Below are positions 45,537 to 46,001 of a DNA stretch of 64,000 nucleotides, in pieces; within the stretch, counting starts at the first letter, position 1; each line of letters opens with the position of its first letter. Below the pieces are notes generated by a model. It was not told the origin of the DNA. It saw nothing but the letters and a program-made list of their open reading frames with translations, and made no database searches. Made by a program: the position numbers and the translations under genes. This DNA comes from Enterobacter phage vB_Ecl_SABI: the sequence record PQ864023.1, one strand, 5' to 3'.

Positions 45537-46001
45537 TACATACGCTATGCGTAGATATAACTATCTACCGTTCGTAACACTACGGTACTACGTACCTACG
45601 TGTTACTCACTGGTTATAGATAGGATACCCATACTTATATACATAGTGTTTATAAGGTTATAGGTATATGTAAGGTAGTAGTATAGATAGTATATAGGGT
45701 AGGTATAGGTATAGAGATAGTAGTTGATAAGGTAGAGGTAAACAAAGTTAAGTAGTACATACTGGAGTATATGTATCCTATTCTCTGTCAACCCTTTTGA
45801 CTAACTCATTTTTTCGATAAGTGTTATGAATAAAATCGATAGATGAGTATCTGTATATGAATTCTGACCGTCATACCTAGCGCGAGTAAATTGCCATAAG
45901 TTTTGAACCTGCTTAGCGCACCTTACTGTCATAGGTTGATTGTGTAGTTGTGTAATTGTGTAGAAAAGAATAAGCCCCATCCCGAAGGATGAGGCTGATG
46001 C
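45537..46001. promoter_or_regulatory. 465-bp non-coding region with nested palindromes and a C-depleted GTA-rich repeat block (candidate early promoter/origin region)
   Basis: No credible ORF. The Y/L-rich 62-aa ORF is a low-complexity artefact. Palindromes 'tacgcTATgcgta', 'gtagataTAACtatctac' and 'gtaacac..gtgttac' are present. About 110 nt (45641-45750) have only two C. Confidence 0.5.

Follow-up and report, generated by a model that had tools for sequence, protein, structure and literature searches.

A nearly cytosine-free block of fixed strand polarity at the predicted terminal repeat boundary of an N4-like Enterobacter phage

The stretch of the Enterobacter phage vB_Ecl_SABI genome analyzed in this work (sequence record PQ864023.1; 64,000 nt, hereafter the window) contains a 465-bp interval (45537-46001) of non-coding sequence, which connects the direct terminal repeat (DTR) with the early operon that opens the unique region. 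The main subject of this work is a block within this junction, which is practically free of cytosine on the strand shown and, consequently, of guanine on the early-sense strand. Nucleotide matches of the region were found in N4-like podophages of the Cbunavirus group alone, at 70-78% identity (Pectobacterium phages CB1, CB3, CB4, Nepra, phiA41, Horatius and Possum, Kosakonia phage Kc283 and Escherichia phage EK8), and the source phage is an N4-like podophage close to the genus Cbunavirus. Relative to the conventional Cbunavirus map the window is reverse-complemented, so that early transcription runs from right to left in it. In the early sense, the terminator of the gp01 gene is followed by the non-coding tail of the DTR, the DTR end, the G-free array, a double hairpin (hereafter hairpin 2) and a hairpin promoter of the virion RNA polymerase (vRNAP). 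The CB1 record opens with a 647-bp ‘redundant terminal repeat’ holding CB1_01, the gene of a small membrane protein, and carries at positions 829-883 an annotated promoter with a stem loop of the N4 early type, next to which the early genes lie; the annotations of CB4, CB3 and Horatius show the same layout. As a whole, the interval is an ordinary left-end control region of an N4-like genome, and the genes neighboring the block encode small proteins matching no family of known function. The coordinates of the features are collected in Table 1.

The first-pass annotation of the window had placed a C-poor repeat block at positions 45641-45750; this segment does hold only two C, and the best limits of the block turned out to be slightly larger. 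Within these limits, the 115 nt comprise 44 A, 1 C, 33 G and 37 T, i.e., 29% C, 38% U, 32% A and 1% G in the early sense. Elsewhere in the 64 kb, the poorest 110-nt segment still has 11 C (mean 25.7, standard deviation (sd) 4.2). The C-depletion score of the block is 102, whereas the scores of 100 Markov-1 simulations averaged 43 and did not exceed 65. Tandem Repeats Finder resolved the block into 9.8 copies of a period-6 unit, TATAGG, with 67% match; the TAG trinucleotides are phased 10/2/2 modulo 3, and autocorrelation is modestly raised at lags 6 and 12. The degenerate repeats are, thus, real, but the term ‘iteron-like’, under which they had been noted, is a loose one, as the period is 6 nt versus the ~20 nt of helically phased sites. 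At the 60-, 100- and 150-bp scales no duplex of the 64 kb is less stable than the block, which lies ~5 sd from the mean (-1.07 kcal/mol per step vs -1.367 +/- 0.059 in the window), and its TA steps reach 31 per 110 nt, as against 7.2 +/- 2.9 in the window. Since one of the strands lacks C and the other lacks G, neither of them folds: the minimum free energies of the single strands (121 nt) are -0.3 and -0.1 kcal/mol with DNA parameters. Several known signals were sought in the block by eye: the TAG-phased array was considered as a DnaA box or DnaA-trio, the core as a two-tetrad G-quadruplex, and TATAGGG/TATAGAGA as the start region of a T7-type promoter, along with a possible IHF site; none gave a testable or conserved match, and all were rejected.

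The alignment with related phages, which had been proposed in the first-pass annotation, revealed the block, conserved as non-coding sequence between hairpin 2 and the terminal repeat, in 13 of 13 Cbunavirus-type genomes. Its length is 109-181 nt, with 1-5 C, in the twelve full-length copies measured; the copy in relative L015 is incomplete, and that in relative L018 was read but not measured. Inside the block lies a 21-nt core (TATAGGRTAGGTATAGGTATA), nearly every column of which is identical in 11 genomes that are ~70% identical elsewhere, and which is unique in the window, no further match being found there at up to 3 mismatches. The flanks of the block around the core are variable and bear many indels and occasional palindromic insertions (CB4, L015 and EK8). 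The block is real and is under selection. The palindromic insertions in or beside it were located at 1241-1274 in CB4 (L007), at ~14755-14795 in L015 and at 2548-2599 in EK8 (L002); they have GAC...GTC ends and a related centre (ctacgct/cgtaagg), are missing from near-identical sister genomes, and have the appearance of additional hairpins acquired sporadically or of miniature mobile palindromes.

The block is non-coding. The open frame across it differs even between close relatives, in which the core is read either as YTYTYPIYY or as IPIPILYT, and long open frames on the minus strand are to be expected here, because a G-free strand can stop only at TAA. The view that the interval holds no credible open reading frame (ORF) and that its Y/L-rich ORF is a translation artefact was, therefore, borne out, the artefact being a compositional one arising from the G-free strand. 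The 59-aa ORF at 45801-45980 is likewise unconserved: its ATG lies inside the terminator stem, and the relatives have in-frame stops and no start codon, whereas the peptide FTRARYDG recurs in them because the underlying nucleotides are conserved. Coding potential was, accordingly, rejected for both the block and this ORF. Rfam 15 covariance models gave no match at E <= 1 on either strand of 45000-47000, and no sigma-70-like promoter was found in 45300-46700, where 3.8 are expected by chance; the latter fits an early region unread by the host RNA polymerase. A conserved TTGACA on the minus strand (45788-45793) has no usable -10 element. As for the records of the relatives, MIF8_45 of Erwinia phage MIF8 (L008, positions 1213-1371) is called inside the C-poor non-coding region, and this and similar Y/L-rich ORFs called here in some records are probably spurious. 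In the EK8 record, a long unannotated ORF occupies ~1890-2460, where the first early gene is expected.

Table 1. Features of the window around the junction of the direct terminal repeat (DTR) and the early operon
Feature	Position	Strand	Remarks
C-free, TA-rich degenerate hexamer array (the block)	45643-45757		G-free on the early-sense strand
Invariant 21-nt core of the block	45693-45713	+	TATAGGGTAGGTATAGGTATA; consensus TATAGGRTARGTATAGGTATA
Predicted inner (right-hand) DTR end	45749-45785		10-mer repeat, CB1/CB4 boundary alignment, Pylas motif
Predicted left physical terminus	46418-46427		Cut after 46423; early sense, between GCACTACT and TACTACTCTGGCTG
Conserved non-coding DTR core	45864-45930		Direct repeat CTGACCGTCATA / CTTACTGTCATA; early sense AGACAGTAAGGYGCGCTA...TTTACTCGCGCTAGGTATGACGGTCAG
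Second C-free segment	45931-45974		TTGTGTAG x3 array (45940-45963)
gp01 intrinsic terminator	45973-45996	-	AGCCTCATCC-TTCG-GGATGGGGCT, then TATTCTTTTC
Hairpin 2	45574-45606		GTAACAC-tac-GGTAC-TAC-GTACC-tac-GTGTTAC; covariation
N4-type vRNAP early hairpin promoter	45541-45553	-	TACGC-TAT-GCGTA on the template (+) strand
Perfect 12-bp inverted repeat around the promoter hairpin	45502-45513 / 45553-45564		ATAGTTATATCT / AGATATAACTAT
DTR-borne hairpin upstream of gp01	46321-46331	-	GGCC-TAT-GGCC; G 13 nt downstream, at 46313
First gene of the unique early operon	45186-45503	-	105 aa; ATG at 45503, Shine-Dalgarno sequence GGAG; phrog_23646 match
gp01, DTR-borne small membrane protein	46002-46274	-	phrog_16196, E = 1e-37; homologous to CB1_01
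gp69-like protein, terminase small subunit	47346-48026		phrog_2109
Large terminase	48023-49633

The position of the block relative to the genome ends was analyzed next to the features of the repeat itself. The first-pass annotation had put the interval at the beginning of the leftward early operon, and the first early gene does adjoin it; the DTR and the gp01 terminator in its right part had, however, been missed. As the right-hand ~250 nt of the interval lie inside the predicted DTR, the block borders on a genome end rather than simply preceding an operon. The gp01 terminator is the sole terminator-like site in 45300-46700, and its stem-loop and T-run are present at the equivalent position in all relatives. 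Directly after it, in the early sense, comes the second most C-depleted segment of the window, with three (C/T)TACACAA units, and TACACA repeats are conserved here in all Cbunavirus relatives as well as in MIF8 and Klebsiella phage P184. The next segment, the DTR core, contains the most conserved nucleotides of the interval, yet no conserved reading frame, the relatives having stops and no start codon. In L018 (reverse-complement coordinates ~690-800), one more small ORF is found within the repeat, where it separates gp01 from the terminator.

The inner end of the DTR is predicted at ~45751-45775. The 10-mer TAAGTAGTAC (45749-45758; TAAGTAGTRC) occurs twice in the 64 kb, on the same strand and 669 nt apart, at the block edge and at the predicted left terminus, while ~0.24 exact matches are expected by chance; the pair predicts a repeat of ~673 bp (45751-46423). 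The early-sense motif TAGGATAC (45773-45780), which sits 15-30 nt inside the predicted DTR end, is shared with phage Pylas, in which it lies at the DTR end mapped by PhageTerm. In CB1 and CB4, the DTR boundaries adjoin the repeat-proximal edge of the block, and the records of both phages begin at the homologous TACTACTCTGGCTG, corresponding to the window sequence that ends at 46423. The context of the left cut in the window is GCACTACT followed by T, and in MIF8, P184, LIT1 and LUZ7 (the last two with mapped ends) it is GCAGTACT followed by T.

Strand-biased blocks were also found at the repeat ends of more distant phages. The ends of the Pseudomonas phages LIT1 and LUZ7 are known from run-off sequencing. 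In LIT1 (L026/L027), the DTR occupies positions 1-655, and G is depleted most strongly, for the entire 72.5-kb genome, in a segment (659-774; 4 G in 116 nt, as compared with the genome mean of 29.9 per 110 nt, sd 4.3) that starts 4 nt past the DTR end. The most C-depleted segment of the same genome, a G-rich one (71794-71862), ends 28 nt before the right copy of the DTR, so that the two blocks mirror each other around the repeat, and on both flanks the C-poor strand runs 5'->3' into it; the right flank bearing the mirror block has no early promoter. In LUZ7, with a mapped DTR end (1-660), a block with 2 G lies at 712-788. The Efbeekayvirus phages P184 and MIF8 have blocks of the same polarity between the gp01 homologue and the first hairpin promoter, that of P184 holding 1 G in 104 nt and CCCTATAC units resembling those of the window. 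A partner array on the other flank of the repeat is present in LIT1, weak in CB1 and absent in LUZ7, in which the mirror block is lacking because that flank is coding. T7 shows the same polarity: directly after its terminal repeat (nt 161-345), G comprises 11% and C 31%, and the least stable 100 bp of its first 1.5 kb are at phiOL, just past the short-repeat array SRL. In the window itself, the most G-depleted plus-strand segments lie to the right of the repeat, at 46927-46960 and at 47190-47300, the latter being the divergent intergenic region upstream of the gp69-like/terminase genes; these segments might be a distant counterpart of the LIT1 mirror block.

On its operon side the block is followed by a series of palindromes. 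All three palindromes noted in the first-pass annotation are present, but the identity of the first one as an N4-type vRNAP promoter had been missed, and the spacer of the third is 19 nt, not 22. Hairpins whose stem has 5 bp or more and whose loop reads TAT on the plus strand, which is the template for the leftward early genes, occur only three times in the 64 kb (41023-41039, 41388-41404 and 45541-45553). All three have the core GC-TAT-GC, as do the hairpins annotated as promoters in CB3 and CB4 (AGTGC-TAT-GCACT and ACGTGC-TAT-GCACGT). Across relatives and paralogues the TAT loop is invariant, and five of the six stem pairs show compensatory change (stem versions TACGC, AGTGC, ATGTCC, AACGCGC and AACGTGC). 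A central loop purine (-11) and a stem G at -8 are reported as essential for the N4 virion RNA polymerase (PMC3715699, citing Davydova 2007), and the hairpin at the interval has A in the loop centre and G at -8; two relatives, L012 and L015, have C at -8 (ATGTCC-TAT-GGACAT), which means that the -8 G rule is not universal in the clade. A promoter of this type has a 5-7 bp stem and a 3-nt loop, with the start, preferably a G, 11-14 nt beyond the centre. The mapped early starts of LUZ7 fall at G residues 13-14 nt downstream of the hairpin centre (PMC9163698), and G stands exactly 13 nt downstream of the loop centre at 4 of 4 TAT hairpins of the window (45534, 41383, 41018 and 46313). The early mRNA is, therefore, predicted to start at G 45534, 31 nt before the ATG. 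The fourth of these hairpins, the DTR-borne GGCC-TAT-GGCC, is probably the first early promoter, judging from its ATGGCCTATGGCC, conserved in all relatives, and its covarying form TAGCC-TAT-GGCTA in MIF8. The homologue of the 45541-45553 hairpin is annotated as a promoter in CB1, CB3 and CB4, and this promoter is of an already known kind. It shares with the promoters of N4 (P1-P3) and with the predicted or mapped ones of LUZ7, LIT1, CB1, CB3 and CB4 a 5-bp stem and a 3-nt loop on the template strand, the central purine, the -8 G and the site just upstream of an early gene, its predicted G start at +13 being in line with theirs; it differs from the N4 promoters, which have GAA/GGA loops, by the TAT loop in the GC-TAT-GC core, and its enclosure in a 12-bp inverted repeat over the Shine-Dalgarno sequence and ATG is peculiar to the subclade of the window. 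The layout is also that of N4 (P1, gp1, terminator, P2, gp2), although gp01 and N4 gp1 can be called positional analogues only, as BLASTP detects no homology between them. The vRNAP gene itself was not found within the 64-kb window, where the longest ORF is of 922 aa and the ORF running off the end encodes a structural protein; the genomes of CB1, CB3 and CB4 encode a giant virion RNA polymerase, and its gene should be expected in the ~11 kb outside the window.

The second palindrome, gtagata-TAAC-tatctac (45551-45568), overlaps the first by 3 nt and proved to be a part of the right arm of the 12-bp inverted repeat (fold z = -5.1), which spans both the Shine-Dalgarno sequence and the ATG of the operon's first gene. 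The genus as a whole does not conserve this palindrome, and the inverted repeat is kept only in the window and its closest metagenomic relatives, L012, L015 and L018. A transcript initiated at 45534 would not include the upstream arm, so that sequestration of the ribosome-binding site would be limited to read-through RNA.

Hairpin 2, located between the promoter and the block, is conserved among the Cbunavirus-type relatives. Its outer arms (45574-45580 and 45600-45606) enclose a spacer which is itself a hairpin, tac-GGTAC-TAC-GTACC-tac. This 19-nt centre, tacGGTACTACGTACCtac, is identical in the 12 Cbunavirus-type relatives carrying it, and as a search pattern it retrieved four viral relatives and one true metagenomic relative. 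The outer 7-bp stem exists in the versions GTAACAC/GTGTTAC, GTATACC/GGTATAC and GTACATC/GATGTAC, with 100% of cells paired and both-sided change in three of seven pairs. In L018 the inner hairpin is swapped for GTACC-TTC-GGTAC, yet the architecture is preserved: the outer stem and the 3x3 internal loop remain, as do an inner stem of 5 bp and a loop of 3 nt. This covariation, together with the swap, indicates selection on the structure, or else on a two-fold symmetric protein site, which would covary in the same way. Hairpin 2 was also considered as a tandem early promoter (cf. the LUZ7 Drc promoters) and rejected, as it has A at -8, T and T at +13 and +14, and a core other than GC-TAT-GC. The GTACC-TTC-GGTAC of L018 (IMGVR_UViG_3300045988_089645), which is the closest relative of the window, is identical, in the opposite orientation, to the hairpin just upstream of the first unique gene of Pylas, read here as a putative promoter.

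Considering its position, polarity and physical properties, we tentatively favor, while giving it somewhat less than an even chance, the reading of the block as a repeat-flanking cis element which would act in the formation of genome ends and would be an N4-like counterpart of the T7 SRL array. The start at the repeat end, the polarity kept in four genera whose sequences cannot be aligned, and the mirror arrangement in LIT1, on a flank devoid of early promoters, point to a strand-specific DNA transaction at the repeat boundary. We infer the following mechanism of end formation. The right-hand DTR cut of the replicating concatemers would fall at the block edge, where the block would offer to the maturation machinery (terminase and a repeat-duplicating polymerase) the most easily unwound duplex of the genome, its separated strands staying unfolded for this machinery. 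The fixed polarity of the block would identify the strand that enters the repeat in the 5'->3' direction. The units closest to the DTR (GTAGTA / AGTAGT) resemble the left-terminal cut site, and the core is a candidate protein-binding site. As the block takes up all of the distance from the repeat to the promoter hairpins, it may also aid their extrusion.

Known systems provide partial parallels. T7 is reportedly furnished with two short-repeat arrays, SRL and SRR, flanking its terminal repetition, as described by Dunn and Studier in 1983. Like SRL, the block is an array of degenerate direct repeats with a short unit, which precedes the early promoters and, by prediction, adjoins the left terminal repeat, with a G-poor, C-rich early-sense strand, and LIT1 adds a counterpart on the other flank, like SRR. 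There is, however, no sequence similarity, the unit is of 6 nt and not ~7 nt as in SRL, base exclusion is far stricter here (1 C in 115 nt), and the window has no array at the right flank. The hexamer repeats of P1 pac and the lambda cosB site are terminase recognition arrays beside a cut site. The block likewise presents repeated short motifs beside an inferred cut site, ~1.6 kb from the terminase genes; its motifs, though, run head-to-tail and are candidate sites judging by their position, and due to the 6-nt period successive motifs are on different faces of the helix.

A number of observations weigh against the end-formation reading. The Cbunavirus DTRs have been estimated from doubled read depth only, and the ends of the source phage are inferred, not mapped; the DTR annotations of the near-identical CB3 and CB4 differ by ~54 nt. 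The terminal 10-mer was noticed post hoc, and an equivalent 16-mer, looked for as a repeated cut site at both DTR ends of the relatives, was not found, only the window 10-mer and the GTAGTA/AGT units recurring. LUZ7 has a 52-nt gap between the DTR end and the block and no mirror block, and the right flank in the window (46424-46487) shows no marked asymmetry and no mirror block either. N4, G7C, phiAxp-3 and S6, which have DTRs and a syntenic left end, carry no block, their repeats ending within or just after gene 1, and the block of Pylas (PhageTerm DTR of 769 bp) is weak; hence, members of the family do not generally need the block for packaging with a DTR. In addition, we know of no function established for T7 SRL, so that the analogy names a kind of element and proves no mechanism, and the same physical properties of the block underlie the origin and promoter-helper explanations considered below.

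The first-pass annotation had offered a replication origin, a packaging or DNA-injection element, or a binding array for a regulatory protein, all of which are still live candidates for the block. In the case of an origin, the block would be a DNA-unwinding element, the hexamer core would bind an initiator, and the palindrome, forming hairpins on both strands, would act as a signal for priming or helicase loading. The least stable duplex of the 64 kb with structure-free single strands, the invariant core within a variable array, the structurally conserved palindrome 37 nt from the block and the adjoining phage RNA polymerase promoters are all consistent with this. Moreover, in T7 the stability minimum of the first 1.5 kb coincides with phiOL, past SRL, phiOL being a secondary T7 origin. 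The T7 origins phiOL and phi1.1 and RSF1010 oriV combine an unwinding element with repeats and with hairpins or promoters: T7-type origins consist of a phage promoter and an AT-rich zone, and RSF1010 oriV of repeats, an AT-rich zone and ssi hairpins. The block resembles them in that the DNA melting most easily in the window is here a repeat array with a palindrome and promoters next to it. It departs from them in having no evident initiator gene nearby, no helical phasing (6-nt period and weak autocorrelation, unlike iterons of ~17-22 bp) and promoters that fire away from it. Cumulative GC skew, proposed earlier as a check, was uninformative, as its shallow minimum coincides with the switch of gene orientation. 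The mirror block of LIT1, on the opposite flank of the DTR, is easier to reconcile with a role tied to the ends than with one origin. N4 replication is believed to involve the genome ends; term searches of papers on N4-like genomes turned up no origin. Altogether, we regard an origin as unlikely. An assignment of the block as a promoter helper seems about as improbable to us. Here the block would be a sink for supercoil-driven unwinding, with SSB, the host protein that binds single-stranded DNA, on its unfoldable strands, which would let the neighboring inverted repeats extrude for vRNAP. GNA loops are unusually stable, and N4 early promoters require negative supercoiling and E. coli SSB; the hairpins at the interval have TAT and TAC loops, not the GNA-type ones of the N4 promoters. 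This, the stability minimum, the density of TA steps, the absence of competing secondary structure and the place of the block immediately upstream of hairpins in the window, LIT1, P184 and MIF8 agree with it. Lilley and co-workers are said to have found that AT-rich flanks induce C-type cruciform extrusion, and the block is similarly an AT-/TA-rich tract 40-90 bp from short inverted repeats needing extrusion; C-type flanks, however, require no strand asymmetry, and the LIT1 block is not AT-rich. A simple unwinding element likewise needs neither strict base exclusion nor conserved polarity. Furthermore, no C-poor block was seen upstream of the other three predicted early promoters of the window, the promoters of N4, G7C, phiAxp-3 and S6 work without one, and the mirror block of LIT1 stands where an early promoter is absent.

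Two further explanations appear very improbable. Read-through past the gp01 terminator would produce a ~115-nt G-free unstructured RNA, which could serve for Rho loading (rut-like) or as a spacer or processing site. The early-sense composition with its near-zero folding energy (calculated with DNA parameters), the untranslated state of the interval and the visibly C-rich, G-poor LIT1 block in a GC-rich genome, a classic rut signature, speak in favor of such an RNA-level element, a rut site calling for no less than ~80 nt of unstructured, untranslated RNA with far more C than G. There is, though, no obvious need for termination between a strong intrinsic terminator ahead and the operon's own promoter directly after, Rfam offered no match here, and both the invariant core and the position at the DTR end would be left unexplained; we consider this the least probable of the explanations. 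Scarcely better are the chances that the block is functionless, i.e., a simple repeat which is prone to slippage and persists because no other non-coding gap of the early region offers it comparable room. Its variable length, indels, occasional palindromic insertions and weak periodicity would suit this view, whereas the invariance of the core among otherwise diverged lineages, the recurrence of polarity and position in genera without alignable sequence, and the rank of the block as the single most extreme compositional segment both in the window and in LIT1 contradict it.

Returning to end formation, we suggest, with still more reserve than for the block of the window itself, that the clade of Cbunavirus, Efbeekayvirus, Litunavirus and Luzseptimavirus may possess a dedicated cis element at the repeat boundary, strand-exclusive, structure-free and maximally unwindable, often accompanied by a covarying double hairpin, which would direct strand-specific nicking, strand-displacement duplication of the repeat or end-proximal initiation of replication. 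Text term searches of six papers on N4-like genomes (PMC6027278, PMC9569702, PMC3715699, PMC3670811, PMC7650795 and PMC9163698) found mention neither of the block nor of a replication origin. The block and hairpin 2 are, in contrast to the promoter, conserved elements undescribed in the N4-like genome literature examined. For an unannotated phage genome, the analysis also places the predicted physical ends and four predicted early promoters.

To our knowledge, the way in which DTR phages cut their concatemers and regenerate the repeats is poorly understood, even for T7. The block appears as an extreme counterpart of the T7 arrays, with exclusion of a single base, the weakest duplex, a polarity kept in four genera and, in LIT1, a mapped end beside it, and the question of end formation is open to deletion and end mapping in CB1, EK8, LIT1 and LUZ7. 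If the proposed role is true, the block would give the first mechanistic handle on the regeneration of direct terminal repeats and on the purpose of SRL and SRR in T7.

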